41,982 nucleotides of DNA from a virus. Lineage: Duplodnaviria > Caudoviricetes. The notes under the pieces are model-generated. The model made no database searches and was not told where the DNA came from. It worked only from the letters and a program-made list of their open reading frames with translations. The position numbers and the translations under genes were made by a program. The stretch is taken from IMG/VR virus record IMGVR_UViG_3300017987_001512, positions 1 through 41,982 of that record; one strand, written 5' to 3'. Below, piece after piece: positions 4,749-34,877 of the stretch (its first letter is position 1; the number at the start of each line of letters is the position of its first letter).

Positions 4749-5312
4749 ATGGCAAAAGTAGATTGGGCACATCTTCTTCAGCAAGACCGATGCAAAGCAT
4801 TGGGTGTACCTTGGTCTGAAGAAGAGTTAAATGCTCTACACGTCGAGGGAGTTCCTGCAAGTTACGTCCGAGCTGGTATTCTTACAAAGAAAGCTTACGA
4901 AAAGAATATCAAACGCGAGGAAGTCGAAGGCAAAGAACTTGCAGTGATGACCCTTCCTGAGCTTCAAGAAGAAGCCAATGAGTTAGGTATTAAGTTCGGT
5001 GGTATTACACCACGAGAAACTTTGATCGACCTCATTAAAAAAGCACGTCTGTTGAAAGAAGCAGGCATTGACGAAGAAGAGGAAGAAGAGGAAGAGGAAG
5101 AAGAGGAAGAGGAAGAAGAGGAAGAAGAAATCGAAGAAGAGGAAGAAGATGAAGAAGAGGAAGAAGACGATGACGAAGAAGAAAAACAAAAAGAAGCTGA
5201 AGCTAAAAAAGAAGCAGCAGCTGAAAAAAAGAAAAAAGCAGCAGCCAAAAAGAAAGCTGCTAATAAAACAAAAGCAAAAGGTGGAAGAAAAAGAAATAGA
5301 AACAAAAAATAA
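4749..5312 (+). CDS. Hypothetical protein with HeH/Rho-N-like motif, poly-Glu tract and Lys/Ala tail
   Basis: MTLPELQEEANELGI...PRETLIDLI resembles a helix-extension-helix motif, followed by a long E/D run and a KKAA-rich end. Confidence 0.7.
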   Translation: MAKVDWAHLLQQDRCKALGVPWSEEELNALHVEGVPASYVRAGILTKKAYEKNIKREEVEGKELAVMTLPELQEEANELGIKFGGITPRETLIDLIKKARLLKEAGIDEEEEEEEEEEEEEEEEEEEIEEEEEDEEEEEDDDEEEKQKEAEAKKEAAAEKKKKAAAKKKAANKTKAKGGRKRNRNKK

Positions 5313-5332: not shown

Positions 5333-6007
5333 ATGAAAGCACTACAAGACAATTTGAGTCTTATCATCGTTGGGTTAATAATTGTTTTAGCTGTCTATCT
5401 TTTTCCAACTCCGAACATCGATGTAGATGTTAATGTTGAAGCTCCTCCTGCTCCTACTACTCAGATGTGTCAATCTGATGAAGGGGGTCAAGATTTTACT
5501 GGTGGTGGTACTTCAAATTATACTTCTACTAACAATGCTTTTACAGGTGCAGTAAGCATGGCCTCAACTTTATCAGTAACTGGTGCTACTACTCTAAGTG
5601 GCGAAGTTACTATGAAGGAAGGGTCACAAGTCTTAGCTCCTACTAATATTTATTCTACGACTACACTTACAGCTGCATTGAGTGGTACTACTTACTACCT
5701 CTCAGCGAGTGGTACAACTATCACTCTACCAGCAGTTGCAGAAGGTCTTAACTTTAGATTTGCAATCAATGGTGCTGCAGATTCAGGTAACTTTATCATT
5801 GACTCATCTGAAGGGGATAATATTAATGGAACTCTTTCTGTTAACAATGCTGATGTAGCATGTTCAGGCGAAGACCAAATCAATTTTGTAACTGATGGTG
5901 AAACCATTGGTGATTATGTTGAACTTCGCTCAGATGGTACTCAGTGGCTAATTGGAGACAGTGGAACAGAGACTGCTGCAAAGATGACATGTACAGATCC
6001 ATCGTAA
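5333..6007 (+). CDS. Membrane-anchored putative virion protein
   Basis: N-terminal TM (LSLIIVGLIIVLAVYLF), Pro-rich linker, then a T/S/G-rich beta domain (TITLPAVAEGLNFRF...GDYVELRSDGTQWLI) seen in phage head/tail accessory proteins. Confidence 0.75.
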   Translation: MKALQDNLSLIIVGLIIVLAVYLFPTPNIDVDVNVEAPPAPTTQMCQSDEGGQDFTGGGTSNYTSTNNAFTGAVSMASTLSVTGATTLSGEVTMKEGSQVLAPTNIYSTTTLTAALSGTTYYLSASGTTITLPAVAEGLNFRFAINGAADSGNFIIDSSEGDNINGTLSVNNADVACSGEDQINFVTDGETIGDYVELRSDGTQWLIGDSGTETAAKMTCTDPS

Positions 6008-6011
6008 CACG

Positions 6012-6130
6012 ATGATATACTCTGCCCATTATTAATTTAGTGGGCAGGCCTATATCATTAGAGATGGATTCCTACTGACTTCATTGGTCGGGCAGAGGCT
6101 TGCCCTCTGTCGAAGCCAGTAGGAATCTAT
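6012..6130 (+). repeat. Two tandem intergenic stem-loops
   Basis: ATGATATA..CTGCCCATT/AGTGGGCAG..TATATCAT (6012-6058) and ATGGATTCCTACTGACTTC/GAAGCCAGTAGGAATCTAT (6064-6130) with inner GGGCA/TGCCC. Confidence 0.8.
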
Positions 6131-6153
6131 TACTAATTAACAATAATACTAGT

Positions 6154-6585
6154 ATGAAGAAATTTAACATCTTTCTGGTAATAGTATTGGCAATAGTAAT
6201 CTGTGCTCTTGCTTATATGAATTTCATGCCAGAAAAACAAGCAGACCAAGATAACCCATTCGATATCTTTGGGATTGCTTTTACAAATCCAACGAATGGA
6301 GCTACAACTACAACTGCATCAAGTCTACCAGTAAAGGTCTTAGATAATAATGCAGATCGTAAGTTTGCTTCAATCCAAAACGATAGTGATACAGATATCT
6401 ATTTACACTTCGGTTATTTCGCAAATGCATCTGCTGCTTCAACTACAGTAGGAGTTAATCAAGGCTTTCGTCTTCTACCGAATGCTGCAAATGAATTTAT
6501 AATTAATGATGAACAGATGTATACTGGCCAAGTTTGGGCTTCAAGCACTGCTGGCAGTAAGAACATTGTCACCATCGAAAAATAA
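6154..6585 (+). CDS. Membrane-anchored putative virion protein
   Basis: ATG at 6154 gives MKKFNIFLVIVLAIVICALAY (signal/TM), then DIFG and a small beta domain (NADRKFASIQNDSDTDIYLHFG...GFRL) common in phage structural modules. Confidence 0.75.
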   Translation: MKKFNIFLVIVLAIVICALAYMNFMPEKQADQDNPFDIFGIAFTNPTNGATTTTASSLPVKVLDNNADRKFASIQNDSDTDIYLHFGYFANASAASTTVGVNQGFRLLPNAANEFIINDEQMYTGQVWASSTAGSKNIVTIEK

Positions 6586-6589
6586 TTCT

Positions 6590-6892
6590 ATGACGTTTCA
6601 AACTCCTAACACAATAGATTCTGCTGCATTTAATGTTACGAATGGTCAATCAGACTACGACGTCAGAACAAACGTTGCTGCAGCATTTAGTAATGTTAAA
6701 GTCTATAAGAGACTCGAACTAAGAGTAGACGGAGATATTACTCTAAAGCTTAATAAAACTACTAATCCAGGAATAGCAATAGGAAAACTAGATAGTCCTT
6801 ATGTAATACCATTTGACATGGATGTTACAGACTTATATATTTCTAATGCTTCTGGAGCAACTGTTGCTGTTAAACTCTTTGGAACAGCATAA
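6590..6892 (+). CDS. Small putative structural protein
   Basis: Likely start ATG 6590 (MTFQTP...); 100 aa beta-rich (VTDLYISNASGATVAVKLFG). Confidence 0.7.
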   Translation: MTFQTPNTIDSAAFNVTNGQSDYDVRTNVAAAFSNVKVYKRLELRVDGDITLKLNKTTNPGIAIGKLDSPYVIPFDMDVTDLYISNASGATVAVKLFGTA

Positions 6893-6900
6893 GAAAATAT

Positions 6901-7461
6901 ATGACCGACCAAAAAATTACGTCAGCGAAAGCTAGACTATTAAAACTTAAAACTGATATAGCAAAGCATGAAGATATCGAAGAAGGTATTGATGCTTCAA
7001 TCAGTGATAAGAATTTAAAGATCAAAAGGAAAAGAAAGTTTATCAAGACTCTCGATCAGAAGGTTATTAAAGTACAAGAGAAGATTAATACTTTGAAAGA
7101 GAAGTATGATAATCTAAAGATCAAGTTTGAAGAGATGAAAGAATCTTACGACGATCTTAAAGAAAAAGTTTCAAATATTAAAATAAAAAGAAAAGCTCTT
7201 ACTGACGATGTAACTTCTTTAAAGGAAGAGAAAGAAGAATTAGAAAAGTCTTCTAAGAAAAAAATTAAAGCATTAGAAGTTCGTGAAGATGAAGTTGAGG
7301 CAAGAGAAGATCTTGTTTCAGACAGAGAAGCTAAGTGTAAAGAGCGAGAAGAGAAATTAGAAGACCGTGAAGAGGGGCAAGATATCAGAGATGTGGAACT
7401 AGACAAAAGAGAGAAGAAAGTTAAAGTCAAAGAGAAAATTAATAAACTAAAGAAAAAATAA
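6901..7461 (+). CDS. Coiled-coil protein
   Basis: K/E-rich heptads and repeated xxREE/xxRED units. Confidence 0.75.
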   Translation: MTDQKITSAKARLLKLKTDIAKHEDIEEGIDASISDKNLKIKRKRKFIKTLDQKVIKVQEKINTLKEKYDNLKIKFEEMKESYDDLKEKVSNIKIKRKALTDDVTSLKEEKEELEKSSKKKIKALEVREDEVEAREDLVSDREAKCKEREEKLEDREEGQDIRDVELDKREKKVKVKEKINKLKKK

Positions 7462-7462
7462 T

Positions 7463-7744
7463 ATGGGGGCATCAAACTCACATGTTAAGGTTGTAGACAA
7501 ATCTGGCAACGATGTAGCATTTTCTCCAGTTGAAGGTTTTAGAGTTATTCGTACAGAGATTACAACAGCAGGACCAAATTATTATCTATACGTAGATGTA
7601 GAGGGTAATTGGTATATTATGAAAGAAACGATTACTAGTAATGTTAGAGTTTATACATTTTATTACGAAGACGCAAGTGACCTCGATGATGCATGGACAG
7701 ATAGAGCAACTCATTCATATGTAGAATTTAACGCTGCATTTTAA
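7463..7744 (+). CDS. Small putative structural protein
   Basis: 93 aa; YYLYVDVEGNWYIMKE...DAWTDRATHSY pattern recurs in phage tail-accessory modules. Confidence 0.7.
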   Translation: MGASNSHVKVVDKSGNDVAFSPVEGFRVIRTEITTAGPNYYLYVDVEGNWYIMKETITSNVRVYTFYYEDASDLDDAWTDRATHSYVEFNAAF

Positions 7745-7754
7745 ATACAATCTT

Positions 7755-9386
7755 ATGATGAATAAAATTATAAATACGTTTATAGTTATTCTAGTAATGA
7801 TGACCTTCTTATTTGTTATTACTGATTTCTATTTATCGTATTCAAAAGATAAAACGCCAGACGACATCTTTGGTGATTGGACAATGAATCCTTTTACTAA
7901 TCAACTCGATTATTATGAAACAGCATCTTCTACTTCAACGACTCTCGATGAATTAGATAATGTAACAATTACTGCTGCAGCTTATGGAGATATGATTATG
8001 TGGAACGGCTCTGCTTGGATCGATCGAGCAACTAGTACTCTCGGTCTTGGTGGAGGTGGTTCTGGTACAGTTACTTCTGTAGATCTTATTGCTTCTTCAT
8101 CGTTCTATACATATGGAGGACCAGTAACTTCTTCTGGTGTACTTGGTCTCGGTATAGCAAGTGGCTATACAGTTCCACTAACTGCTTCTACTTCTGAATG
8201 GGCTACTGCTTACGGTTGGGGAGATCACTCTCTGGCAGGATATATTACATCACCAGACGATTCAGTAAGTTCTGCTGAATTTGATAATCTTTGTTCAACT
8301 AACGATAGAGTAGTTCGTAGAGTTGGTGGTACTTGGTCTTGCTTCGACGATTCAGTATATTACGACGATACAGATACCCAATTATCAACAGAACAAGTTA
8401 CAGATATGGTAGGAGCAATGGTCACAGGGAATACAGAAACAAATATAACAGTTACATTTCAAGACGGAGATGAGACAATTGACTTTGTCGTAACTGATGC
8501 ATGGTGGGATGATGTTGCAGATATCACAGATGATACATTGACTGAAGCGAAGTTAGATTTTTCAAATTCTCCAACAACAAATTATGTTGTATCATGGAAT
8601 GGCTCTGCACTAACTTGGATTGCTACTTCAACTTGGGATACTGACACAGATACTACTTGCGATGGAAGTTCTTGTAATGTAACAAATACTGGTACACTCG
8701 ATGGTTATGAAGCTGCTGCTTTACTTGATGATACAAATCTTACACAAGAAGAAGTCGAAGATTACGTTGGTGGTATGACTAGTGGTACTGAAACAAATAT
8801 TACTGTTTCTTACAATGATGGAACTGGTAATCTTGATTATGTAGTTACAGATGCATGGTGGGACGCTGATGGAGATATTGCAGCAGACGAGATTTCTGAA
8901 AGCAAGATTAATTTTGCTACAGTTTGTGCAGCAGGAAATCATCTATACGTAAACGGTAATGATCTAGCATGCGAAGCAGATGACGATACAACATATACAG
9001 CAGGAGATTATATTACTCTAACTGCAACAGACTTCGATGTAGACGATGAAGCAGTCTCAGATACAAAATGTATTTGGTTTGAAGATCCAACAGCAGACGA
9101 CGATTTTGAAAGTATCTGGGAGAATGATATGGGTAAAGATGCAACGATCTTAGAGATTTCATGTGAATCAGATCAAACAGTTAATTTAGATTTACAAGTA
9201 GACGATGGTTCTCCAGCAGATGTAAATGGTTCTGATCTAGTATGTACATCAGCAGAAGTAAATGATACTTCATTCGCAGGAGATTCTGTCATAAGTGATA
9301 ACGAAGAATTAGATTTAGCAATTACATCAGTCAGTGGAACACCTACATGGGTACAAGTATGCTGGCATATTAAATTTAGTGATTAA
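7755..9386 (+). CDS. Membrane-anchored tail fibre-like protein
   Basis: N-terminal TM, DDIFG, NPFTNQLDY, fibre-type motifs (LDELDNVTIT, GTVTSVDL, WATAYGWGDHSLAGY), an internal repeat and Cys pairs. Confidence 0.75.
   Translation: MMNKIINTFIVILVMMTFLFVITDFYLSYSKDKTPDDIFGDWTMNPFTNQLDYYETASSTSTTLDELDNVTITAAAYGDMIMWNGSAWIDRATSTLGLGGGGSGTVTSVDLIASSSFYTYGGPVTSSGVLGLGIASGYTVPLTASTSEWATAYGWGDHSLAGYITSPDDSVSSAEFDNLCSTNDRVVRRVGGTWSCFDDSVYYDDTDTQLSTEQVTDMVGAMVTGNTETNITVTFQDGDETIDFVVTDAWWDDVADITDDTLTEAKLDFSNSPTTNYVVSWNGSALTWIATSTWDTDTDTTCDGSSCNVTNTGTLDGYEAAALLDDTNLTQEEVEDYVGGMTSGTETNITVSYNDGTGNLDYVVTDAWWDADGDIAADEISESKINFATVCAAGNHLYVNGNDLACEADDDTTYTAGDYITLTATDFDVDDEAVSDTKCIWFEDPTADDDFESIWENDMGKDATILEISCESDQTVNLDLQVDDGSPADVNGSDLVCTSAEVNDTSFAGDSVISDNEELDLAITSVSGTPTWVQVCWHIKFSD
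8373..8915 (+). repeat. Internal duplication of about 62 aa in the fibre gene
   Basis: DTQLSTEQVTDMVGAMVTGNTETNITV...VVTDAWWD...EAKLDF (~8373-8561) versus DTNLTQEEVEDYVGGMTSGTETNITV...VVTDAWWD...ESKINF (~8730-8915). Confidence 0.85.
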
Positions 9387-9389
9387 TAT

Positions 9390-12300
9390 ATGAAGACCAA
9401 AGAAATAATAATTACATCAGTTGTAGGAGCATCACTCTTATTATTCGGTGCACCTAAAGCAAATGATCTTGTAAAGAGTAAACAGTATCTAGATAAAGAA
9501 AAGATTGAGAAAGCAATTGATGAATCAACTATTAAAGAAAAATATAAATTCAAAAATGATAAACTTGTATTAGAAAAGAAAGGTGATCGTCCAGAGATTC
9601 TTATTGGTGATGGTTTAGAACCAGGTCTTGAATTTAAGAAATGGGATACGAACTTTAAATTAAAACCTAGATCAAAGAAAATTAAATCTCTAAGTACAAA
9701 GGATAAAGAAATTACTTATGACGATGGCGAGAGTAAATACCGTTTCTATGATTTAGATGATAAGAAAGCAAAAGCAAATGTAGATACTCTAGAAAGAGCA
9801 GATCTCGATACTATTGTTTTTGGAGCAGCAGACCCTGAGATAGATCTTGATGATGCATATGAATTCGAGATTGAATTATCTAAAGCACCTCAAGATGGAA
9901 TCGTTGAAATGGATATTGAAACTGAGAATCTAAAATTTCTATATCAAGACGCTTTGAATATTGAAATGGCAAGTACTACTTGTACACCTACATTATGTGG
10001 AGAAGTCTCAAGACCAGAGAATGTCGTTGGAAGCTATGCTGTATATCATGAAACAAAAGAAGGAGATCTTACAAAACTTGGAGGAGAGAATTATAAAGCT
10101 GGTAAGGTTTTTCATATCTACAGACCAAAGCTCATCGATGCAAATGGAGATTGGATCTGGGGTGAATTATATGTTGATACAGCTCTAGGTATTTTAAGAA
10201 TAACAGGAGATACCTCTTGGTATTCTAAAGCAGCTTATCCAGTAATCGTAGATCCAACTTTTGGATTTACTAGCATAGGTGGTTCATCGTATACAACTAA
10301 TACAGACTATGTTATAGGTGGTATTTTTACTGCACCAGAGGATGGTATCATTGAGAGCATTTCTTTTTATAATCTATCTGGAACATACGATGACGGTCCA
10401 GTTAGAGTCGGAGTTTATGTTGGACCAGATCAGTATCTTATTTCTGGTAATTCTGGCAATGTTTCTCTTTCTGCAGGAGCTTGGGTTTCAGATGATCTAG
10501 AATCAGAAGTAAAGATAGAATCTGGAGAGGAATATACTCTTTCTCATTGGTCTGAAGAAGCTTCTATGAGATACGATACACTGACTAATGGTGCAAAGAG
10601 AGAGAGTGATGCATTTCCATCAGATTGGTGGAATTCTTATATGACTGGAACATTGAGTTATAAGCTCTCGATCTATGCAACGTATACAACTGATATCTCA
10701 ACTGGAGAATTTATTATAGGCGATGCGTCATCTGCTATGTACGATGTTACTTCTTATCTCTCTCATATAACTGCAGCATCAGCGAGGTTAAGTACAACAA
10801 CGTATGTATTTGCATATGATTATGACGAAGATTCTTCTGGCAGAGCAATCATTGCTTCTTCTAGTGGAAGTTCAATCGAGTTCGGTACTTCTTCAGCTTT
10901 TAGTGCTTCTTCATCGAATATAACTGAAACAGTCAAGATGGACGAGTCTACATTTGGTGTTATATATACAGATGGAAGCTACGATCTTAATTACGTAATC
11001 GTTGGTATTGTAAGTGGGACTAGTAGTATTTCATGGACGAATAGAGTTTTGTTACCAACAAACAACGCTTCATCAGAACGAGCTCTCGCTGCTTTATCAA
11101 GTACAAAGCTTGTAGCTTGTTACCCTGATGCAGACACAGATGGTGAATGTGCAATTATAACATTGAGTGGATCAACTATAAGTCTAGGTTCTGGCTACGA
11201 GCATGATACTATTTATTATAACTATGGAAATATAATTGGTGTTATCGATGAGACTCATTTTGTAGTAACGTTCTATGATAATAAAAGTGGCGGTACTCTT
11301 GATAAAAGAATTGGTACTGTTTCTGGTTCATCGATTTCTTATGGTACAAGATACGATTACGACCTCAGCCTTTCATCGATTGATCTTGATAAGATCGTAG
11401 AAGTTTCTGACGATAAATTTTTAATGCTAGGCTCGACTGGTTATAGCCCAGCAACTTTCTATGCTCATTATTTTTCTATAAGTGGATCAACAGTTACAGT
11501 AGAAGATCACTTAGTCTTAGATAATCTTCCTACTGATTGGGATACTTGTGATGGTCTTGTAAAAATAAGTGAGTCTACATTTGTAGTAGGGTATTTTACA
11601 GACAGTTTCAATATGGGTCTTTCTAGAATTTCAATAAATGGTTCAGACGAATTATCACAGGGTTCAATTGTTCACCCATTAATTGGTTCATCGATTCGAG
11701 ATTATAGTTCAGAATTTGAACCAATAGACTCTGAAAAGTTTATATATATGTATCACGATTCAAAGAATTCTACAGGTCGTGCTAGAATAATAACTCTCGG
11801 AGATATTGTTGATACATCTGCTGCTACTGCTATTAGCCAATTTACTGCAACTCTCAATGGTTCAAATGCTCTCGTAGAAGAAACAGCAATGGAGGTTTAT
11901 TTTAGATATGGTACAGCATCTGACACATATACTGCTACTACAACTTTAGAGTATACAGAGGCAAGTGCAGCTTTCGATGCAGTTCTTACAAATCTTCTAG
12001 ATCCATCTACAACATATTATTTCAGAGCATATGGTAGAGGAACTTCAACTGGTTCTACTGTTATTTATGAAGGAGCAGAAGAGTCATTTATTACTTCTAG
12101 TTACGATCCAGTTACAACAACTGAAGTTTCTAATGTAGATCAGACTTCTGCTAGATTCAATGGAACAATCGATGATATGGGAAAATTCGCAGAGATTGAT
12201 CTCTGCTTCATGTATGGTATCGAAGCATTTACTGCTACAAGTTCTTGCGATACCCTTTCTGGTACAGGTGCTGGTTTTGTAGATCTAACTGGTTTAACTA

Positions 12301-13526
12301 CTTTCTCAGTATATCAATATAGAGCATTTGCTTCTACATCTGATGGGATCTGGTATGATGATACAACAATCGAATTCTTTACAGCAGACGTTTCTACTAC
12401 GACTGATACAACAATAGATTGGAATACTGGTACTCTTGCTACTACAACTGCAGAAGATGGTTCATTAAAACTGGATCTCATCGGTGGAGGTGGTGGAACT
12501 CTTACTTTTCTAGGTTCTACAGAACAAGATCAATCAACATCAGGTACAACTTGGACTCGAACGCATTCATGTCAGAATGGTACAAGTCGAGCAGTTATTA
12601 TCGCAATCAACGTTTCACAAGTATCGACTGATAATATAGTTACAGCAGTATCATACGATGGAGTCTCAGCTACAAAGATCGAAGATACTCCATGCTCTGC
12701 TTGTAGTTCTGATCCACATGTTTCATTATGGTTTCTTAACGAAGACGATCTTTCATGTACTGCTGGTACATATAATCTTGTTGCAACTCTTTCTGCATCT
12801 GAACAAGGTGAAACATTAATGTACTGGTTTGATGGAGCAAGCCAAGATGTTCCAACGAATTACTTAAATATCTGGTCTATCAATAATGATGTTGCTACCT
12901 ATGAAAATACAATAACAGATACTACAGATGGAAGTATTATCTTAGATCAATTCTACAGTGAGTATACTGGAGACAATGCTACAGTTGGAGCAGGACAAAC
13001 AGAGATCAGAGCAGATGAAGGTGTTCCTAATGAAGGATCTGCTTATTCAAGTCGAGAAGCTTCTAGCGGGGGTGATGTTACAATGACGTGGAATAATACT
13101 TCTAATTCAGGTGGGTGGGAGAAAGTTCATATGGTTGTTGAAGTTGAAGTAGGAGGAGAAGCTACTACAACGTCTGGTTATAGAATCTCAGATCCACTCG
13201 ATGTTGGTATAATTGAAAGTGTAGATGCAAGTATTATCGAATGGGCAACTACAACAGCAGCAAGTAGTACAGCAGAATTCTACGCACTGATTAATAGTAG
13301 TACATCTACTCCACCAGCTGGAGTTTGGGATTTAGTTAGTAATGGTGGTTCAATTCCAGATGCTACAGGAGATCTTTCAGGAAAGTATTTATGGACTAAG
13401 ATTGATTTAACAAGTATCGATGGAATAGAACAACCAACAGTAGAATGGTTAAGATATGGAATCAACGATGGAGGAGCAACATCTTCTCCAGCTACATCTA
13501 CGAGAAGGATCATTTGGATATATTAA
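9390..13526 (+). CDS. Large exported multidomain adhesin/receptor-binding-like protein
   Basis: 1378 aa: hydrophobic N-terminus, domain ending YPVIVDPTFG, beta-propeller-like repeats (SGSSISYG/SGSTISLG), two FN3-like units (ATLNG...PSTTYYFRAY; ARFNG...YQYRAF) and a C-terminal beta domain. Confidence 0.75.
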   Translation: MKTKEIIITSVVGASLLLFGAPKANDLVKSKQYLDKEKIEKAIDESTIKEKYKFKNDKLVLEKKGDRPEILIGDGLEPGLEFKKWDTNFKLKPRSKKIKSLSTKDKEITYDDGESKYRFYDLDDKKAKANVDTLERADLDTIVFGAADPEIDLDDAYEFEIELSKAPQDGIVEMDIETENLKFLYQDALNIEMASTTCTPTLCGEVSRPENVVGSYAVYHETKEGDLTKLGGENYKAGKVFHIYRPKLIDANGDWIWGELYVDTALGILRITGDTSWYSKAAYPVIVDPTFGFTSIGGSSYTTNTDYVIGGIFTAPEDGIIESISFYNLSGTYDDGPVRVGVYVGPDQYLISGNSGNVSLSAGAWVSDDLESEVKIESGEEYTLSHWSEEASMRYDTLTNGAKRESDAFPSDWWNSYMTGTLSYKLSIYATYTTDISTGEFIIGDASSAMYDVTSYLSHITAASARLSTTTYVFAYDYDEDSSGRAIIASSSGSSIEFGTSSAFSASSSNITETVKMDESTFGVIYTDGSYDLNYVIVGIVSGTSSISWTNRVLLPTNNASSERALAALSSTKLVACYPDADTDGECAIITLSGSTISLGSGYEHDTIYYNYGNIIGVIDETHFVVTFYDNKSGGTLDKRIGTVSGSSISYGTRYDYDLSLSSIDLDKIVEVSDDKFLMLGSTGYSPATFYAHYFSISGSTVTVEDHLVLDNLPTDWDTCDGLVKISESTFVVGYFTDSFNMGLSRISINGSDELSQGSIVHPLIGSSIRDYSSEFEPIDSEKFIYMYHDSKNSTGRARIITLGDIVDTSAATAISQFTATLNGSNALVEETAMEVYFRYGTASDTYTATTTLEYTEASAAFDAVLTNLLDPSTTYYFRAYGRGTSTGSTVIYEGAEESFITSSYDPVTTTEVSNVDQTSARFNGTIDDMGKFAEIDLCFMYGIEAFTATSSCDTLSGTGAGFVDLTGLTTFSVYQYRAFASTSDGIWYDDTTIEFFTADVSTTTDTTIDWNTGTLATTTAEDGSLKLDLIGGGGGTLTFLGSTEQDQSTSGTTWTRTHSCQNGTSRAVIIAINVSQVSTDNIVTAVSYDGVSATKIEDTPCSACSSDPHVSLWFLNEDDLSCTAGTYNLVATLSASEQGETLMYWFDGASQDVPTNYLNIWSINNDVATYENTITDTTDGSIILDQFYSEYTGDNATVGAGQTEIRADEGVPNEGSAYSSREASSGGDVTMTWNNTSNSGGWEKVHMVVEVEVGGEATTTSGYRISDPLDVGIIESVDASIIEWATTTAASSTAEFYALINSSTSTPPAGVWDLVSNGGSIPDATGDLSGKYLWTKIDLTSIDGIEQPTVEWLRYGINDGGATSSPATSTRRIIWIY

Positions 13527-13533
13527 AGGTCGA

Positions 13534-13542
13534 TGATATAAT
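13534..13542 (+). promoter_or_regulatory. Putative extended -10 promoter for the lysis cassette
   Basis: TGATATAAT (TGnTATAAT) 18 nt upstream of the holin ATG; similar TGATATACT at 6013-6021. Confidence 0.45.
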
Positions 13543-13560
13543 AAATAAACAAAAACAAAT

Positions 13561-14058
13561 ATGCAGAGATTTCAAAGTATGTTCCAGTATTTCTGGGCAA
13601 AGCTACCAGTTGCATTACCACTCAGCTACTTTACTATTTCAGCTGAGCAAACATTAATCGTAACAGGTCTAGCTTTCATGGTATTCATTGATACAATTCT
13701 AGGTCTATGGGTATCTTATAAATTCAGAATATTCACAAGTCACAGACTTGGAAGAATAGCTGATAAAATTTCTAAGTACTTTCTAGCACTTGCTAGTATT
13801 TGGATTCTAGTTTGCGTTAATGAATTACTCTTTTCCTGGGCTTTCCAATTCGTGGGGATATTTCTAATTCTCACAGAGCTCTTCAGTAACTTTGAAAAGC
13901 TCTCTCTGTTAGGACTAGAAGTTCCAACTAAGTTCTTAGCAAAATTAAATAAAAATTTCCATGAATATTATTTTGGAGATAGCGAATCAAGAGAAGGCGC
14001 AATAAAGCGAATCCTTGATAAACAAAATTGTCCACCTATAACAAGGAGGGGAAAATGA
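13561..14058 (+). CDS. Holin (toxin secretion/phage lysis holin family-like)
   Basis: Several TMs with motifs FIDTILGLW, TSHRL..IADK and ELFSNFEKLSLLGLEVP typical of Phage_holin_4_1. Confidence 0.8.
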   Translation: MQRFQSMFQYFWAKLPVALPLSYFTISAEQTLIVTGLAFMVFIDTILGLWVSYKFRIFTSHRLGRIADKISKYFLALASIWILVCVNELLFSWAFQFVGIFLILTELFSNFEKLSLLGLEVPTKFLAKLNKNFHEYYFGDSESREGAIKRILDKQNCPPITRRGK

Positions 14059-14171
14059 TAGAGACAATTAAATTCTACAGTGCAGTAATCGTCTGCTTCT
14101 TTGGTTTAGTTCTCATTCTTATATGCTCGAGAATCTTTCCTAGAACATTTGAAAAGATCACCGGTATCTAA
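14055..14171 (+). CDS. Small single-TM protein (38 aa, absent from ORF track)
   Basis: MIETIKFYSAVIVCFFGLVLILICSRIFPRTFEKITGI*, with ATGA overlap with the holin stop and SD AAGGAGG upstream. Confidence 0.6.
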   Translation: MIETIKFYSAVIVCFFGLVLILICSRIFPRTFEKITGI

Positions 14172-14180
14172 GGAGGAGCT

Positions 14181-14492
14181 ATGACATGCTCATATGGTTT
14201 ATGTCCGAGATGTCTAACGTATAAGATGCTAACAAAGCATCACATATTACCAAAGAGGTTTTTTAAGAATCAGAAGAAACCACCAATCCTTTACATCTGT
14301 AGAGACTGTCATAATGAATTAGAATTACTAATTCCTTTTCGTAAAAAGAAAGATGAGAGTTTCTATTTAAAGACAGCAAGAAAATTTTTAGAAGAGGGGG
14401 TGAGAAATGAAAAAAGACTGGTGGTCAATGCTAGAGTCAAGAGATCCTACAAAAATCGAATACGACCACAACAGTGGTCTAGTCAGAGCTAG
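14181..14492 (+). CDS. HNH endonuclease-like protein
   Basis: CPRC...TKHHILP...ICRDCHNE; SD AGGAGG upstream. Confidence 0.8.
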   Translation: MTCSYGLCPRCLTYKMLTKHHILPKRFFKNQKKPPILYICRDCHNELELLIPFRKKKDESFYLKTARKFLEEGVRNEKRLVVNARVKRSYKNRIRPQQWSSQS

Positions 14493-14604
14493 GAAAGAAC
14501 CAACAAAAACCTGGAAGTACGGCAAGAGAGTAAAAGAAGCACGATGGTCCATCACTGAGGGTTACGCTCTTATCGAAAGGGGGAGCAATTGCAATCCGAA
14601 ATAA
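14407..14604 (+). CDS. Hypothetical protein
   Basis: 65 aa; strong SD GAGGGGGTGA upstream, overlaps the HNH tail, followed by a hairpin. Confidence 0.5.
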   Translation: MKKDWWSMLESRDPTKIEYDHNSGLVRARKEPTKTWKYGKRVKEARWSITEGYALIERGSNCNPK

Positions 14605-14614
14605 ATTCAACCTA

Positions 14615-14645
14615 AGAGCCGGTCTAATCGCTGGCTCTGCTTTTC
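14615..14645 (+). terminator. Putative intrinsic terminator
   Basis: AGAGCCGG-tctaatcg-CTGGCTCT then GCTTTT. Confidence 0.55.
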
Positions 14646-14672
14646 AATCTAATTATTAAAATAGAAAAAAGT

Positions 14673-14960
14673 ATGACAATCTTACTAACTCTAATTATCA
14701 CAGGAGTAACACAAGCTGTGAAATTAGTTTCAAGGATGTTCGGAGTTTCAAAGCAAGTATCAACGATGTTGGTATATGGTTTGTTATTCGTACTTGTGTT
14801 TCTGTTTACTGCAGCTCAACAATTCCCGAAGCTTGCTGAACAGATTTTATTCTTCGGGACTGTGCTGACTGGCTCGATCGGTACTTACGAGCTATTGCTC
14901 AACAAGACTGGTCTAGACAGTTTATTTAAAAACTCTTTAGAAATCAAACGTAAAGAATAA
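14673..14960 (+). CDS. Small multi-TM membrane protein (second holin-like)
   Basis: 95 aa with 2-3 hydrophobic segments (ITGVTQAVK; GSIGTYELL) directly upstream of the peptidase. Confidence 0.6.
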   Translation: MTILLTLIITGVTQAVKLVSRMFGVSKQVSTMLVYGLLFVLVFLFTAAQQFPKLAEQILFFGTVLTGSIGTYELLLNKTGLDSLFKNSLEIKRKE

Positions 14961-14962
14961 GT

Positions 14963-15976
14963 ATGATTCAAGAAAACAAATTCTTAGCACCAGTTCAAAA
15001 GTTAAAACATAACATTGAGACAACTGGTCTTAAGGAAAAAGGATTCGATCTTGATAATGAGATCGCTTCCCTTGATCCAAGGAATTATCAATTTGGTGAA
15101 CACTTTGAAGAGGATATCTTTGGAGCAGTTCTCCCAGATCGTTTTCTTTGGAAACAAGCTGAACTTCCTAAGTTACCTTTTCAGAATTCTATCTTTAGTT
15201 GTGTTAGTGCTACATGCTCTTTTATCAACTCATTTAATTCTAAGAGACAAGGCAATGATGTATTCCTTGCTTGGAGATATCCTTATGCTTTAGTACCCCA
15301 TTATTCAGGCGGTACAAGTGTTAAAGATAATCTTAGTGTTCTACAGAAGAGAGGACAATGCGAAGATAACTTCCTCCCTGAAAGATTATTCTATCATGGA
15401 GAAAAGGAAATGCAAAATCCAGCAAACATTACAGCAGCAGCACATAAGAATGCTAGAAACTATAGAATCAAAGCTTATTACTTTCTTAAAGCTTGGAATG
15501 AAATAGAAATGAAAACTGCTATAATGAAAGCTCCAACAGGAGTAGGTCTATACATTGGTAACAATTGGTATAGTTCAAAAGATAACAATCCCGGAAGACC
15601 AATCAAATGGGATGGAGTTAAGAAATACGGTCATCTGATTTCATTCGTCGGATGGAACCAGAAGGGATATATATTTGCAGACTGGGACGGAAGAGGTCTT
15701 CACGTTCTAGATTATTCATATCCTTTATTCTTGTCATTCTTGATACATGACATGAGTGACAAACTTAAAGCAATGCTTATGAAACCATACAAGCTAGAAG
15801 GGACTAATCGTCTCTTAGTAGTTCTTCCAAACGGTAAATATCAATTTATCGATTCTGTTGCACAGTGGCAAGCACTCAATGCAAAGAAATTGATTCTGGG
15901 AGAAACAAAGAAAATAACTCAAGCTGAGTTAAATAAATTAGAAAAAGACAATAGTCCAATTGTCGTAGTAAAATAA
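14963..15976 (+). CDS. Papain-like (C1) cysteine peptidase with C-terminal surface-binding-like domain
   Basis: DPRNY propeptide, LPDRF, Q-NSIFS-C (oxyanion Gln and catalytic Cys), GGTS, GHLISFVGW (His), ADW (Asp in place of NSW Asn). C-terminus VLPNGKYQFIDS...ITQAELNKL resembles surface-binding repeats. Confidence 0.8.
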   Translation: MIQENKFLAPVQKLKHNIETTGLKEKGFDLDNEIASLDPRNYQFGEHFEEDIFGAVLPDRFLWKQAELPKLPFQNSIFSCVSATCSFINSFNSKRQGNDVFLAWRYPYALVPHYSGGTSVKDNLSVLQKRGQCEDNFLPERLFYHGEKEMQNPANITAAAHKNARNYRIKAYYFLKAWNEIEMKTAIMKAPTGVGLYIGNNWYSSKDNNPGRPIKWDGVKKYGHLISFVGWNQKGYIFADWDGRGLHVLDYSYPLFLSFLIHDMSDKLKAMLMKPYKLEGTNRLLVVLPNGKYQFIDSVAQWQALNAKKLILGETKKITQAELNKLEKDNSPIVVVK

Positions 15977-15980
15977 AAAT

Positions 15981-17177
15981 ATGCAAACACTTCAGTATTC
16001 AAAATTATCTACTGAGCTACAGAATCTAATTGGTTCAACTGGTAATGTCAAAGCTGGTACTTCTGTTATAAGAGAAATCTTTAATAGAGTACTCGATGAT
16101 CTATCACTCTATGCTAATTGGAAATTCTGTGTCAGAAGAAAAGAATTTGATTACTTGGATGCATTAGTAGAATATAGTCTAGAAAACTATATGGGGATAT
16201 CAGATTTTAAATCTCCATACGAGCTTGGAGGTATTGGATTCGTAGACGATAGAAGTTTCTTTCCAAAGAGAAACACTGTTAGAAATAGAATCAATAGCGA
16301 CAATAAATATGGCTCTAGTAGTTTTAGAAGGCACAGTCAGAAAATGATTAATGGTGAGCACTATATTCTAGTTAACCTTGATAAAGGTAATACACTAAGA
16401 GTTGATTCATTAGACAATGTAGATTACGATGGAGAATGGGTTAAGGTGGGAGATGCGTTAGATCCTGCTCAAGACCTCATCGAGTACAGACAAGGTCAAG
16501 CTTCATTGAAGTTTAGAATTTCTACAGCAGGAGGAAATAACTATGCTGGTATTAAAAATATTACACTAGCACAGAAGAATCTTTCTGATTATGAAGATGC
16601 AGGTATTCATCTCTTAGAATGTTATATCCCATATGCTGGATGTACTGGTATTACAATCTATTGGGGTTCTGATACAAGTAATTACTGGGCAGCATCTGCT
16701 ACTACTCCAATCAATCAATCTGCAATCGCAGTTGGATGGAACGAGTTTAAACTTAACTGGGAGAATGCTACTCAGATAGGTTCTCCAGATGCAGAGAACT
16801 GTGATTACTTCGAAGTTCGATTTAATTTCCCATCAGCTACTTATACTGATAATGCTTTATTCAGAGTTGATAATTGGAGACTCTCTTCAATCTTCAGAAT
16901 GGATTTTGATTATTTCTCAAAGTACATGGTAATTGATGCAGATGGAAATTGGAAGTCAAGATTCACAGAGAACGATGATTACTTTGCTGGCGATGAGGAT
17001 TGCTCAGCAGTATTAATCGAGATGGCTTTCAAAGAATTATTGAGAACTACTCGGAGAGTTAGTCAAAAAGATAAAGACGATGCTACAAGAAAGTACAATG
17101 AATTGAAAGCTCGGATGAAACATAACTATGGAGTTAGCATCCAAAAAGGATCTAAGAAAATAAATATCAAGAGATAA
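15981..17177 (+). CDS. Putative head-tail adaptor (P22 gp4-like) with inserted beta-sandwich domain
   Basis: Helical N- and C-termini (FNRVLDDL...NWKF) flank a beta domain (GWNEFKLNW...GSPD...FRVDNWRL); precedes the nozzle gene. Confidence 0.6.
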   Translation: MQTLQYSKLSTELQNLIGSTGNVKAGTSVIREIFNRVLDDLSLYANWKFCVRRKEFDYLDALVEYSLENYMGISDFKSPYELGGIGFVDDRSFFPKRNTVRNRINSDNKYGSSSFRRHSQKMINGEHYILVNLDKGNTLRVDSLDNVDYDGEWVKVGDALDPAQDLIEYRQGQASLKFRISTAGGNNYAGIKNITLAQKNLSDYEDAGIHLLECYIPYAGCTGITIYWGSDTSNYWAASATTPINQSAIAVGWNEFKLNWENATQIGSPDAENCDYFEVRFNFPSATYTDNALFRVDNWRLSSIFRMDFDYFSKYMVIDADGNWKSRFTENDDYFAGDEDCSAVLIEMAFKELLRTTRRVSQKDKDDATRKYNELKARMKHNYGVSIQKGSKKINIKR

Positions 17178-17178
17178 T

Positions 17179-18984
17179 ATGTCTAGGATAATTCAAAGAG
17201 AAAAATATCGAGGAATGATAACGAGAAATCCTGTAACGAAGAATCATCCTGACACTGCATTCTTAGCTTGGAATATTAAAATAACTGGAGAAGGTATTGA
17301 ACCAGTTAAAGGCTTTGAGAAATACGGAGGAGATGCTCCAGCTGATGGACAACAAATCTCAGATGCTTTTACATTTACTCTTCAGTCAGGAGAAGAGATT
17401 CCTTTAAGAATAAGAAGAGCTGCTGCAGAAGCAGTATTAGAATGGTACGATGCTACGAATGAGTTATGGTATATTCTTCTTCCAGGCTTATCTCTAACAA
17501 ATCATTTTTCATTCTTCGATTATAATACTAGTACAGGGAACATGTTATTCTTTGGCAATGGCATAGAGAATTACTCTCTCTGGACTGGATTAAAAACAAG
17601 ATTGATTCAACAAGTCAATGCAACAGATACAAAAGTTTATGTATCGTCTACTTCAGGTTTTGCTGCAACAGGTACAATTATTTACAATGGAACTGAGATA
17701 GCATACTCTGCTCTTGGTTCTGATGGTACAGGTGCTTACTTTGAAGTAGGCTCTGCTCATGCATCTGATGGTGCAGCAGATGCAGTAGCGATTGCTGTTG
17801 ATGATGCAACGTATTCAGGAGTTGCTCTTTCGAAGATAATGATCTCTGCTCAGAACAGAGCATACCTCGTCGATGAAGACGATCCTAACTCAATGGAGTA
17901 TTCTGTTGAAGGAGATGCTACTGATTGGACAGCAGGAGATACTAGAGCAGATGCTGGTATTGAAGACTTCCCAATTGTTGGTGGAAGAATTACTGGCTTA
18001 GCTGCAAAGGATTCTTATATCTTTATCTTCAAAGAGAAAACAATTATCTTGTTCAAATGGAATTATCCAACACGTACTACAAAAACTCCAGACTTCAAAC
18101 ACATTGTTACTGGAGCTGACGTTGGTGCTATTGGACATCGAGGCATTTCAAATGTCTACAAAGAAATTCTATATGTAACAAGAAACGGTATTAGATCTTT
18201 AACACAAGATATCTATACTGATGATTGGAATGCTGAACCAATCTCAGAAGTAATTCATCCATCAATTAAGAACTACGTCTTTGATGAAGATACTGTTAGT
18301 ATCTATTATGAGAAAGAAGATGTTTATCTTGTCTCTTGCAAATCAGATGCTAATCAAGCTAATAATAATAGAGTCATTGCTCTATGGTATTATACTGAAA
18401 CTGATGCAGAGGGTAATCAAGTTAGAAAGAAAGGTTTCTCTATTCTTGATTGGACAGTTGGTTCTTGGTTTATCTACGGTGGAGATTTATATTTTGGTTC
18501 TTCTATGGAAGGAGCAGTTTATAAAGCTTTCGTTGGATATTCAAAAGATGGTACAGCAATTAAATCTATCTATGCAGATAACAGAAATGACTATGGTTCT
18601 AAAACATTAAAAGGAGCACAGTCGTTACAAGTCTTCGGTCTTATTAAATCTGGTACAAAGATTGATTATGAAATTGTATTTGATGGAGGAAGACAATCGT
18701 CTCAAACATTTACTGTCGATGCTGCTGGAAAATATGTTACAAAGAGTACACTAAAAACTCTTGGAACATTCAAGCTCGGTGAAGAAGTACTAGGGGGAAC
18801 ACTTGAAGAGACAGAAGATCTTATGTTATTTGATTTCACAATAGAATTACAAAATAAACAGTTCTTTGATTTACAATTATCAAGGACACAATTAAAGGCA
18901 GGTGGATATTTTAAAATCTTCTCCGAGGGATTAGTTGAGCCTGAAGAAGAATTCGATGTACCACTTGATACCTTTCATGAATAA
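17179..18984 (+). CDS. Putative tail nozzle/stabilisation protein (P22 gp10-like beta-propeller)
   Basis: 601 aa with GGRITGL, IFIFKEKTI, VGAIG, YVTRNGIRSL and PISEVIHP motifs. Confidence 0.7.
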   Translation: MSRIIQREKYRGMITRNPVTKNHPDTAFLAWNIKITGEGIEPVKGFEKYGGDAPADGQQISDAFTFTLQSGEEIPLRIRRAAAEAVLEWYDATNELWYILLPGLSLTNHFSFFDYNTSTGNMLFFGNGIENYSLWTGLKTRLIQQVNATDTKVYVSSTSGFAATGTIIYNGTEIAYSALGSDGTGAYFEVGSAHASDGAADAVAIAVDDATYSGVALSKIMISAQNRAYLVDEDDPNSMEYSVEGDATDWTAGDTRADAGIEDFPIVGGRITGLAAKDSYIFIFKEKTIILFKWNYPTRTTKTPDFKHIVTGADVGAIGHRGISNVYKEILYVTRNGIRSLTQDIYTDDWNAEPISEVIHPSIKNYVFDEDTVSIYYEKEDVYLVSCKSDANQANNNRVIALWYYTETDAEGNQVRKKGFSILDWTVGSWFIYGGDLYFGSSMEGAVYKAFVGYSKDGTAIKSIYADNRNDYGSKTLKGAQSLQVFGLIKSGTKIDYEIVFDGGRQSSQTFTVDAAGKYVTKSTLKTLGTFKLGEEVLGGTLEETEDLMLFDFTIELQNKQFFDLQLSRTQLKAGGYFKIFSEGLVEPEEEFDVPLDTFHE

Positions 18985-18985
18985 T

Positions 18986-20533
18986 ATGAAGAAACTTATA
19001 ATCATCTTAGTTCTCTTGAGTTTTAGCATAGCACCATTTGCTAGCGCTACTCTCTACGAGTTCTACAGGGAACAAGGTCAAGCACTTCCTTCAGTTGCAG
19101 AAAGAGCACCGACCTATGAGCTTCTCTTCCCTGGTGAAAAATACTATGGAGAAGCAGAACAAAATAATAAGTACGAGTATTATCTAAGAAACCCAGAAAG
19201 AACATTCGGAGCAGCAGTTAAACCATTTCGTCCTTCAGGATATTCTACTACGCTAGCTTCAAACCTAGCAGAGGGAGGAAGTGAAACAACTCTTACAGTT
19301 AATTCAATCACTCTCCCAGACGATACTACACTTGCTTCTACCTCTTTCGGTGATCTTCTAATCTTAACAATAGGAGAAGGAGATACTGAAGAAAAAATTT
19401 CTGTAACAGATCTTAATACAAGTACAATGACATTTACAATTGGAACGAGAGGATTAGCTTACGGATCTTATACAGAGACAGAAGCAAACAAACATAGACA
19501 TCTCCCAGGAGAAAGAGTTTATGTATCAGACGATGATCATTTCTTAAATCAACAATTCGTTGATCTAGCATCTGATCAAACTTTGACAGGAGTTATTACT
19601 TTCAGTCAATCACCAGTTATTCCTACACCAGGAGGATCTGATTTAACTTACGGTGCTAATGTAGAATATGTAAATAACGTTGCAACATCTGGTGCAGCAG
19701 ATCTTAGTACTACTATTAAAGGTCTAGGAGAAGGAGCTACTAAAGCAGAAGCTTCAGCAGGTACAGCAACAGGTGGAACTGGAGCTCCATTAGTATTACT
19801 CTCAGAACATGCAACATCTACATTTGATATTGCTACTACATCGATCATGGTTACAGAAGACGATGGGTATCTTAATCAGCAAGCATTAGATCTTACAGAA
19901 GATTTTTCTTTCTCAGGAGAACTAACAAGCGATGGAAATACAACTCTTGCTTCTACAACAATTACAGGTACTACTACAGCTAATCATTATATCTCTTTAG
20001 AAGATGATCCAGTTCAAGACAGTCATGCAACACGAAAAGATTACGTAGATCAACGAGGACACTATACTGAATTCGGAAACGGTTTTACTGATACTTCTCC
20101 TGGAGGGTCTTCTGAAACTGCAACGACTTCAATTACTACATCAGGCGATAGACCAGCTCAATTCGTAGAATTTACATTGATGACAATGAGTATTATGCAA
20201 ACAGGTTCTAATGGTACTCGGTACAGAACATATAAAGTTCTCTTTGACCTTGCTAATCAAAAGTATAGGTCTCAACTTGTTGCTTCTACAGATTCTGGGA
20301 ATTTTACATCATGTGCTTTACAAGGAAATGGAGATGGAGATGGTAGTGTTCTATGGACTGGTAATGCGTCTTCGATGAGTCCAGGTGCATTTAGTACAGG
20401 TGGAGTTAGTCCGTCTTTTGTTAATTATATTGTTTCAGATGAAGATAGTATTGATGTTAACTATACTCTTAATGAAAACGATAATGGTGACGAAGGATGT
20501 ATTTATATGTATGGTATTATTATTTATAATTAA
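18986..20533 (+). CDS. Signal-peptide-bearing tail fibre/spike-like protein
   Basis: ATG 18986: MKKLIIILVLLSFSIAPFASA (Sec signal, AxA), DUF3597-like LPSVAERA...YYGEAEQN, TFGA, then fibre motifs (TTLASNL, RGL...HLPGERV, ANVEYV, ATRKDYVD). Confidence 0.75.
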   Translation: MKKLIIILVLLSFSIAPFASATLYEFYREQGQALPSVAERAPTYELLFPGEKYYGEAEQNNKYEYYLRNPERTFGAAVKPFRPSGYSTTLASNLAEGGSETTLTVNSITLPDDTTLASTSFGDLLILTIGEGDTEEKISVTDLNTSTMTFTIGTRGLAYGSYTETEANKHRHLPGERVYVSDDDHFLNQQFVDLASDQTLTGVITFSQSPVIPTPGGSDLTYGANVEYVNNVATSGAADLSTTIKGLGEGATKAEASAGTATGGTGAPLVLLSEHATSTFDIATTSIMVTEDDGYLNQQALDLTEDFSFSGELTSDGNTTLASTTITGTTTANHYISLEDDPVQDSHATRKDYVDQRGHYTEFGNGFTDTSPGGSSETATTSITTSGDRPAQFVEFTLMTMSIMQTGSNGTRYRTYKVLFDLANQKYRSQLVASTDSGNFTSCALQGNGDGDGSVLWTGNASSMSPGAFSTGGVSPSFVNYIVSDEDSIDVNYTLNENDNGDEGCIYMYGIIIYN

Positions 20534-34853: not shown

Positions 34854-34877
34854 AGAATTGGTCAATTAAATGATTAA

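Follow-up and report, generated by a model that had tools for sequence, protein, structure and literature searches.

Candidate export and protease release of spikes and fibres in a group of tailed phages

Leader-bearing candidate virion proteins and a papain-like peptidase

The virus record IMGVR_UViG_3300017987_001512 is a 42-kilobase (kb) phage contig with a G+C content of about 0.36; the whole stretch of 41,982 nucleotides was analysed and is called the window here. Five genes of its late operon encode candidate virion proteins (A to E) that begin with a hydrophobic leader, and the gene of a papain-like cysteine peptidase of family C1 lies between the last two. A short tag, in its simplest spelling Phe-Gly (FG), follows the leaders and recurs in the pro-region of the peptidase. 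We propose that the five proteins are exported and may be freed at the tag by the peptidase when the cell lyses. The six genes are as follows.

5333..6007, + strand: protein A, 224 residues; anchor at residues 1-24, followed by an acidic linker, then the tag F-T-G-G-G (5495-5509) and a mature spike-like domain, predicted to be trimeric, that contains Cys177 and Cys220
6154..6585, + strand: protein B, 143 residues; leader, DIFG (6262-6273), beta domain of about 100 residues; three A-[ST]-[ST]-[ST] motifs
7755..9386, + strand: protein C, fibre-like, 543 residues; anchor, DIFG (7863-7874), mature part from D-W-x-x-N-P-F; five A-[ST]-[ST]-[ST] motifs, 10 Cys
9390..13526, + strand: protein D, 1378 residues; anchor, charged N-terminal domain up to VDPTFG, long Ser/Thr-rich receptor-binding-like body
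14963..15976, + strand: C1 cysteine peptidase, 337 residues, no signal; pro-region with DIFG (15113-15124), then Gln74, Cys80, His224 and Asp240
18986..20533, + strand: protein E, tail fibre, 515 residues; cleavable signal at residues 1-21 (ending FASA before Thr, by eye), pro-domain of about 53 residues, TFG (19202-19210), mature fibre

Every position that the initial annotation had given for the motif was recovered exactly, including QDFT in protein A (5492-5503) and the Phe of the three FG sites of protein D (9444, 9819 and 10260). With the holin-like genes set aside, the five leader genes have the highest N-terminal hydrophobicity of the 23 late genes (2.06-3.14 in a 17-residue Kyte-Doolittle window, against at most 1.36 for soluble late genes). 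All five leaders have n- and h-regions, and an A-x-A is, by eye, evident in E and possible in B. The idea that all five proteins are membrane-tethered was too broad: those at 5333, 7755 and 9390 look like uncleaved anchors, while 18986 has a cleavable signal and 6154 possibly has one (by eye).

The annotated role of these proteins in the virion is backed by matches of their relatives to fibre and structural families. Pfam gave nothing useful for proteins A-E themselves. The profile of A weakly matched the 'Particle protein' of PDB entry 9NY6 (expect value, E, 5e-4), and anchor-less A relatives weakly matched phrog_8295, a 'virion structural protein'. Protein C has a weak PHROG tail fibre match, and the E ortholog in record G004 contains a Tail Collar domain (PF07484, E 1e-20) together with many PHROG fibre matches; B and D are assigned as fibres or spikes by position and phage homologs only. 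For residues 60-224 of A, a three-copy structure prediction scored 0.79 (best control 0.00), with runs sharing at least 71% of contacts and a predicted local distance difference test (pLDDT) score of at least 81. When the score was calibrated on two copies, 20 of 30 solved pairs came up to this mark, as did 1 of 23 single chains; likeness to solved fibres may raise the score. In the predicted trimer residues 62-98 interlock between chains, which we read as a shaft that would begin beside the tag.

The letters of the window taken alone make no case for the motif. The dipeptide FG is not enriched there (32 occurrences, about 27 expected from the Phe and Gly frequencies), and when the 23 late proteins were shuffled 1000 times, 253 rounds gave some four-residue word that came up in the N-terminal 80 residues of at least three of them, so that the three DIFG copies by themselves prove nothing. 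Inside the window the motif is no better than chance; the case for it comes from relatives.

The tag in related phages

Loci around related capsid proteins fell into two groups, with leaders on nearly all post-capsid and fibre genes or on none. The leader-bearing (anchored) group comprises the window and loci L003, L004, L007, L009, L016, L019, L021, L025, L038, L051, L054, L056, L057 and L064. A search of the full library with protein A found 945 relatives, counted at the 50% cluster level. Among the 150 best, 132 carry an anchor, and the other 18 are, by reading, about eight full-length anchor-less proteins and otherwise fragments or wrong starts.

Chance as the cause of the tag was rejected at the level of this family. 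In the 60 residues after the anchor of the 132 proteins, [FL]G[GA] occurs 86 times against 23.3 expected (z 14; the best of 500 shuffles gave 37) and is present in 74 proteins against 21 expected, and it is depleted in the remainder of the same chains (20 versus 52). Nine patterns were tried on this family and the choice was made post hoc, which a z of 14 survives. Eight patterns were tried on a second, mixed set: 55 exported proteins, drawn from 20 records and left after two of 57 rows (an out-of-frame open reading frame and a holin-like gene) had been dropped. After the leader, this set is enriched in FG (20 versus 13, p 0.04), F[STEA]G (18 versus 5) and [FLIV]AG (15 versus 7). The annotated x-F-G is real at family level and wider than first described: a hydrophobic residue, then G/S/T/A/E, then a small residue, with Gly second or third. 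Papain-type enzymes prefer a bulky residue in the S2 pocket. The spellings FG, LG, FTG, FSG, FEG, IAG and VAG would fit a single rule (bulky, small or acidic, small) that corresponds to P2-P1-P1' of a papain-type site.

We found that conservation starts behind the tag and not across it, and that orthologs lacking the anchor, or having only a signal, begin there. The post-capsid protein of anchor-less L027 starts M-G-T-T-N-F-D, which is the sequence after the Gly tag in L057 and L009 (by eye). Relatives of B keep IFG, SFG or KLG behind variable, unrelated linkers, and residues 41-143 of B superpose on phage proteins of 106-124 residues from residue 41-42, the first after FG (template modelling, TM, score 0.76-0.81, predicted models on both sides). 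In L001 and L004 the homologs of C carry a plain signal peptide that ends just ahead of D-W-x-F-N-P-F, the stretch found behind DIFG in the window, and an anchor-less protein in L063 starts M-F-K-F-N-P (by eye). The anchor-less ortholog of E in G527 starts M-A-V-F-R-P-S-G at the tag boundary (37% identity, E 4e-18); four close anchored orthologs of E have FG or VAG exactly at the domain edge, and three distant ones have FG or LG at most 3 residues from it. That the tag marks the boundary between leader and mature protein is therefore well supported by sequence comparison, and removal at the tag appears likely. The pro-domain of E (window 19049-19201, about 53 residues) is conserved in the window, L001, G004 and L226 and nowhere else among the compared loci, and the E-type proteins of G005 and G528 have unrelated pro-regions; the idea that it is a cell-wall-binding module found no support.

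Protein D is the exception, and its annotated sites are doubtful. The N-terminal domain of D also occurs in anchor-less L039, L011 and L037, and its sites are not diagnostic because DPTFG is retained in L039 and LLFG is the end of the hydrophobic stretch. Self-cleavage of the Rhs type at DPxG was rejected as an explanation of the tag, since it fits D only. At window 9750-9860 the N-terminal domain of D contains an acidic insertion with IVFG-AA, apparently missing in the anchor-less homologs (by eye), and it is possible that this is an acquired cut site. In the A homolog at L038:9134 the leader ends in ITG-C, like a lipoprotein signal, followed by FEGG, a third kind of tether.

Two other readings of the tag bear on these data. 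The leaders might stay on, keeping the proteins in a lipid layer carried along by the particle or in the surface of infected or lysogenic cells, with hydrophobic-Gly as a flexible hinge ahead of the folded domain: the anchors of A, C and D have no evident signal-peptidase site (by eye), Gly-rich junctions are common as hinges, and some members are temperate, as judged from an attachment-site repeat. We regard this as improbable. A plain cleavable signal, as in the C homologs, would leave the N-terminus that a cut after FG also gives; E combines a cleavable signal with a tag retained behind its pro-domain; and the genes stand in a tailed-phage late operon with fibre-family matches. Moreover, bulkiness is not required of a hinge, and GG shows no enrichment among the A relatives (136 versus 127). 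Alternatively, no dedicated protease might be involved, the tag being either a motif bound, for instance, by a chaperone or by the particle, or a place that is trimmed spontaneously or by signal peptidase; its spelling is variable and several proteins hold two candidate sites. This we consider very unlikely, since a median of 18 residues (2-57) separates the tag from the hydrophobic stretch, in most cases beyond the reach of signal peptidase I, and conservation sets in behind the tag, not across it.

Signs of export, the peptidase and its tag

Export of the accessory virion proteins, as the annotation proposed, is very probable from sequence features tied to the anchor. Besides the anchored state of most A relatives, two Cys columns in the A alignment are present in 17/17 anchored rows and 0/5 anchor-less rows, and at least two Cys occur in the last 60 residues of 129 of the 132 anchored relatives. 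The second feature is A-[ST]-[ST]-[ST], which the 55 exported proteins contain 177 times against 25 expected (7-fold); it is flat in 70 Ser/Thr-rich proteins of 16 anchor-less loci (32 versus 37). In the window there are 25 copies in B-E, none in A and 0 in the 11 leaderless proteins scored; D has 12 against 1.1 expected (and 11 Cys), and E has 5 against 0.5. Anchored A relatives contain 149 against 37. N-x-S/T is not enriched in the exported set (246 versus 240). Together, the Cys pair and the motif, neither of which the initial annotation lists, suggest a reason for exporting these proteins. The motif is probably a glycosylation sequon, and we think it somewhat likely that the modification of the exported proteins is glycosylation.

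The distribution of sugar genes is consistent with this. Among 11 anchor-less loci, of which 38 chosen proteins were scanned, 5 have glycosyltransferase genes (GT2/GT4) within the structural module, which suggests that virion glycosylation there is cytoplasmic. In the scanned proteins of anchored phages (sets of 29, 73, 30 and 11, a part of their genes) no glycosyltransferase was found, and a candidate in anchored L224 had no Pfam match. The genes of glycosyltransferases, methyltransferases, epimerases and cytidylyltransferases in anchor-less structural modules are at these places.

L005:3858-6475
L011:8823
L037:13611-15853
L039:13568-16819
L047:13969-15783

The papain-like nature of the peptidase, also annotated, is backed by profile and structure. 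Its profile matches xylellain (3OIS) with E 2e-17, and its model (pLDDT 89) superposes in Foldseek on 3OIS with a TM score of 0.75, then on papain and ficin, all fold matches listed being C1; a first model, built on 6 close sequences, came out at pLDDT 51 and was discarded as poor. The catalytic Cys and His are invariant in 18/18 rows and the Gln is present in at least 90%; the third catalytic residue is Asp240 in the window and its close clade, where papain has Asn, and Asn in L064 and L090. In the pro-region F53-G54 is invariant in 6/6 close relatives, and FG is found in 8/8 members of a separate peptidase clade. The window peptidase has no useful Pfam match and does not match PF00112; L003 reaches E 0.058, and distant L090 and L212 pass the cut-off. 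The PF00112 model is too insensitive for scoring presence (0/5). Neither Pfam nor the fold comparison gave a CHAP, NlpC/P60 or peptidoglycan-binding domain in the window enzyme. Its C-terminal residues, about 70 (window 15761-15976), were confidently folded in the first model and belong to no Pfam family; this domain may target the enzyme to the cell surface. Record G528 has two tandem C1 peptidases (L118:10001-11787), both with LG.

We found that the peptidase accompanies the anchored state. It is present in all five anchored records that are at least 90% complete and were found via the capsid protein or A (G001, G002, G004, G005 and G525), in less complete anchored G012, G014, G016 and G527 and in the G003 prophage; it was found in 0/8 anchor-less records at least 90% complete and in none of eight less complete ones. 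Six incomplete anchored records lack it (G011, G017, G018, G523, G524 and G526), of which G011, 88% complete, stops 50 bases short of the hub gene, at the place that the peptidase occupies in its twin G016. Complete G528, G530 and G531 were found through the peptidase and are not counted; they carry leader-bearing fibre genes. The spelling of the tag also tends to agree between enzyme and substrates. The G005 enzyme, 53% identical to that of the window, has IAG at the aligned FG place, and its four substrates have VG, IAG, VAG and VAG; in G528, LG stands in both peptidases and in four substrates. Over 13 phages the tag letter of the peptidase equals that of the substrates in 31 of 43 sites (permutation mean 20.3, p 0.012, uncorrected for kinship). 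These observations suggest that the phage peptidase is probably the cutter.

The most serious alternative is that a host surface protease cuts the exported proteins at the tag, with the phage C1 enzyme acting as a lysin whose own FG serves self-activation only. The peptidase stands beside holin-like genes, and no other lysin was seen among the scanned proteins of the window, G004 and G005. The G001 enzyme and, by alignment, that of G003 have a C-terminal NlpC/P60-like domain (E 0.004, below the cut-off), so that the peptidase may be the lysin. In anchor-less G007 and siphovirus G542 a C1 domain is fused to PG_binding_1, and the pro-region of G542 reads LTFG, so the peptidase and its tag do exist without anchored substrates. 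In addition, each phage mostly uses one letter (38/43 sites), as a host-specific protease would also produce. Nevertheless, we judge this alternative unlikely. The peptidase tracks the anchored state across gene orders and clades, and in G005 and G528 the enzyme shares its letter with the substrates. After the leader, [FL]G[AGST] was not enriched in 27 exported proteins taken from Patescibacteria (20 random stretches; 3 versus 3.3), nor was it over 44 proteins of five further genomes (4 versus about 7), the true host not being among the sources. The peptidase family includes lysin-like members, and FG may first have been a self-cleavage site, later lent to exported proteins.

Besides the lysin-like features just given, the shared D domain and the cleavable signal of E, several results weigh against a course of export, modification and release by the phage peptidase. 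In the A family plain FG stays close to expectation (40 versus 37), as does bulk [FL]G after the leader in the mixed 55 (32 versus 35), and several exported proteins have a signal peptide only and no tag (L119-L121, L001 and L004). One marine clade supplies six of the eight near-complete anchor-less negatives, and a peptidase that has diverged can escape detection, because a profile lacking the G007 enzyme finds that enzyme only at E 0.088. The letter match is broken by G525 (peptidase F, five substrates L; 0/5) and by G012 (0/2); the 43 sites were hand-picked, because an automatic first-site rule chose evidently wrong ones in several proteins, and kin share letters. The proposed sequon is up (11 versus 2.2) in 16 A relatives with no anchor detected, a group in which truncated anchored forms are numerous, and flat in the 27 exported proteins of random Patescibacteria stretches (4 versus 2.9). 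Cleavage, export and glycans are predictions from the comparison of sequences and models.

A proposed route, its hosts and known systems

The remaining genes of the late operon, all on the + strand, fit a phage in which only accessory proteins have leaders. In order, the operon has portal-like and scaffold-like genes, the capsid gene (PF25209), the accessory genes and a holin gene (PF05105), then the peptidase, the adaptor-like and hub-like tail genes, a fibre and two large ejection-like genes; the replication genes are on the - strand. The portal, scaffold and ejection labels are based on gene order, from which the tail would be of the podovirus type. The named features outside the leader genes are these.

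3704..4681, + strand: major capsid protein (Pfam PF25209, E 1e-10; PHROG major head); no hydrophobic N-terminus and no A-[ST]-[ST]-[ST]
13561..14058, + strand: holin-like gene (Pfam PF05105, E 6e-8, above cut-off)
14673..14960, + strand: small membrane protein with hydrophobic segments, holin-like by position, directly 5' of the peptidase and in the same place in L003; no family above the Pfam cut-off
15981..18984, + strand: leaderless genes resembling those of head-tail adaptors and tail hubs (matches to PHROG families of tail and virion structural proteins); no A-[ST]-[ST]-[ST]

From these elements the following course can be proposed. Capsid, adaptor, hub and ejection proteins, which are leaderless, would assemble into the core in the cytoplasm. 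Proteins A, C and D would be exported by N-terminal anchors, E by a cleavable signal followed by the pro-domain, and B by either. Outside the cytoplasm the proteins would fold and the Cys pair would close, and the A-[ST]-[ST]-[ST] sites would be modified, with O-glycosylation by a host enzyme as the likeliest form; relatives without anchors would often rely instead on cytoplasmic glycosyltransferases of their own. Since the peptidase has no signal and lies behind holin-like genes, it would reach the outer face only once the membrane is holed. It would strip its own pro-region at the same tag and cut its substrates after a bulky F, L, V or I plus G/S/T/A/E, before a small residue. This would free the N-terminus at which orthologs without an anchor start; the model of the A trimer puts this end at the shaft, beside the anchor, and it would have to be free to bind capsid or tail. 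The freed spikes and fibres would then dock on the finished particle at lysis. As a whole, this chain of export, modification and release by the phage protease at lysis has, in our estimate, a little better than an even chance of being right.

As to the window itself, it has no terminal repeat and, among the open reading frames read, no terminase, and relatives are 45-48 kb with a terminase ahead of the portal, so the window is probably incomplete. It encodes a family B DNA polymerase, a primase-helicase fusion and a thymidylate synthase, and no tRNA; three proteins (4749-5312, 34410-34865 and 37867-38553) have very long Glu/Asp runs. Among cultured or deposited phages protein A had no match and the capsid protein two distant matches only. 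The late operon is rearranged in several anchored phages (L068:2788, L072:1812, L080:2647, L107:3134 and L064:24), with the portal-like gene 3' of the ejection genes and, behind it, the genes of the exported fibres and of the peptidase. The exported proteins of G525 include one of 1059 residues with a GH18 domain (L225:11737), and a candidate amidase of that record had no Pfam match.

Regarding hosts, a Shine-Dalgarno-like word precedes 4 of 36 window genes; scarcity of such words is typical of Patescibacteria hosts and is also found in Bacteroidota. Capsid relatives were seen on short contigs in Patescibacteria, Omnitrophota, archaeal and other bins; in 401 Patescibacteria genomes no A-family gene and two capsid relatives were found. 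On the host side the evidence for the sequon is thin: it is moderately up in exported proteins of 2 of 5 Patescibacteria genomes preselected for a tandem copy (10 versus 2.5 and 7 versus 3.0). A tandem ATST DNA pattern did not separate groups (21/301 Patescibacteria, 18/101 Alphaproteobacteria), a reversed control being similar or larger. Several leader-bearing proteins at the matches of this pattern are dense in the sequon, for which they had been selected. One anchored member is a true prophage in an alphaproteobacterial chromosome, with G+C of about 0.57 against 0.66, and is bounded by a 47-base repeat of the end of tRNA-Gly(CCC). The prophages at this tRNA gene are the following.

G003:C15, about 326,600-373,740 (L079, L016, L080)
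G596:C88, 1-18,350 (L313)

G596, a second genome of G003's family, thus has a related phage ending at the same tRNA, and a close peptidase occurs in 2 of 401 genomes of that family. None of 16 structural genes of these two prophages has a Shine-Dalgarno-like word, and the candidate exported proteins of the alphaproteobacterial host are not enriched in the sequon (1 versus 1.4, crude gene calls). Records G001, G002, G530 and G531 have a similar integrase, coupling-protein-like and primase module (by eye). A two-host life cycle, between an epibiont and its own host, is possible. The only 16S gene of the alphaproteobacterial bin (L077, G003:C16:157535-159061) looks Saccharibacteria-like, although the DNA beside it is alphaproteobacterial-like (G+C 0.63); this contig end may be chimeric.

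Tailed phages are taught to build all their parts in the cytoplasm. If the proposed course is true, they would have a second assembly route, one in which a step timed by lysis follows export; phage C1 peptidases would gain their first part in particle maturation, and a sequon for bacterial glycosylation would be predicted. The 945 relatives of one substrate indicate breadth, and the tag would give a sequence rule for trimming leaders of many 'hypothetical membrane proteins'; although the phages are uncultured, the proposal can be tested with one soluble enzyme and short peptides. The widest version would be that widespread tailed phages finish their particles outside the cytoplasm, with surface-parked spikes and fibres glycosylated at the new sequon and freed at lysis by a C1 protease co-evolving with its tags, that sister phages use cytoplasmic glycosyltransferases, and that some members whose gene signals are Patescibacteria-like are stored as alphaproteobacterial prophages, possibly shuttling between epibiont and host. 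We put it forward tentatively, as somewhat doubtful in its entirety.

In the mostly open-access literature, as far as its accessible parts go, we found no description of exported, protease-released structural proteins of tailed phages or of an A-[ST]-[ST]-[ST] sequon, and no publication on a transferase reading that motif; the accessible part of a patescibacterial phage paper (PMC13059738) holds nothing on such structural proteins. Phage papain-like enzymes are mentioned, in the part of PMC10318531 available, only as CHAP-type and related cell-wall hydrolases. The window peptidase shares with papain-family C1 enzymes (xylellain 3OIS, papain, cathepsins) the fold, the Gln-Cys-His residues and a short pro-region before a conserved Pro; it differs in its catalytic Asp, in being phage-encoded without a signal beside a holin, and in its proposed substrates, the phage's own exported virion proteins. 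Sugar-coated virions are described for mycobacteriophages (Che8; Freeman et al. 2023, as cited in PMC11256854, of which a part was available). There phage glycosyltransferases are implied, whereas the anchored phages would use an extracytoplasmic host system.

Two bacterial processing systems were set aside. Prepilins are cut between G and F before the hydrophobic segment, whereas the tag follows that segment and reads F-G. Double-glycine leaders are cut after Gly by the papain-clan enzyme of C39 ABC exporters, and P1-P1' of [FL]G[GA] resembles that site; no C39 or ABC match was found in 29 window proteins scanned, however, and GG, as said, is not enriched. The present enzyme is C1, its substrates have a Sec-type hydrophobic leader, and the cut is predicted after export.

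The course proposed here can also be compared with two viral maturation systems. In the head-maturation proteases HK97 gp4, T4 gp21 and phiKZ gp175, one protease trims N-terminal pro-parts at a short shared motif and also cleaves itself; those are serine enzymes that act inside the cytoplasmic prohead on head proteins, whereas here a cysteine protease would act on substrates with export leaders, and the capsid and scaffold of the window have no N-terminal tag. In envelope glycoproteins of eukaryotic viruses the secretory route, disulfides, glycans and a priming cut mature an attachment protein. Here, in contrast, the anchor would be discarded, and the product would join a non-enveloped tailed particle after the cell opens.

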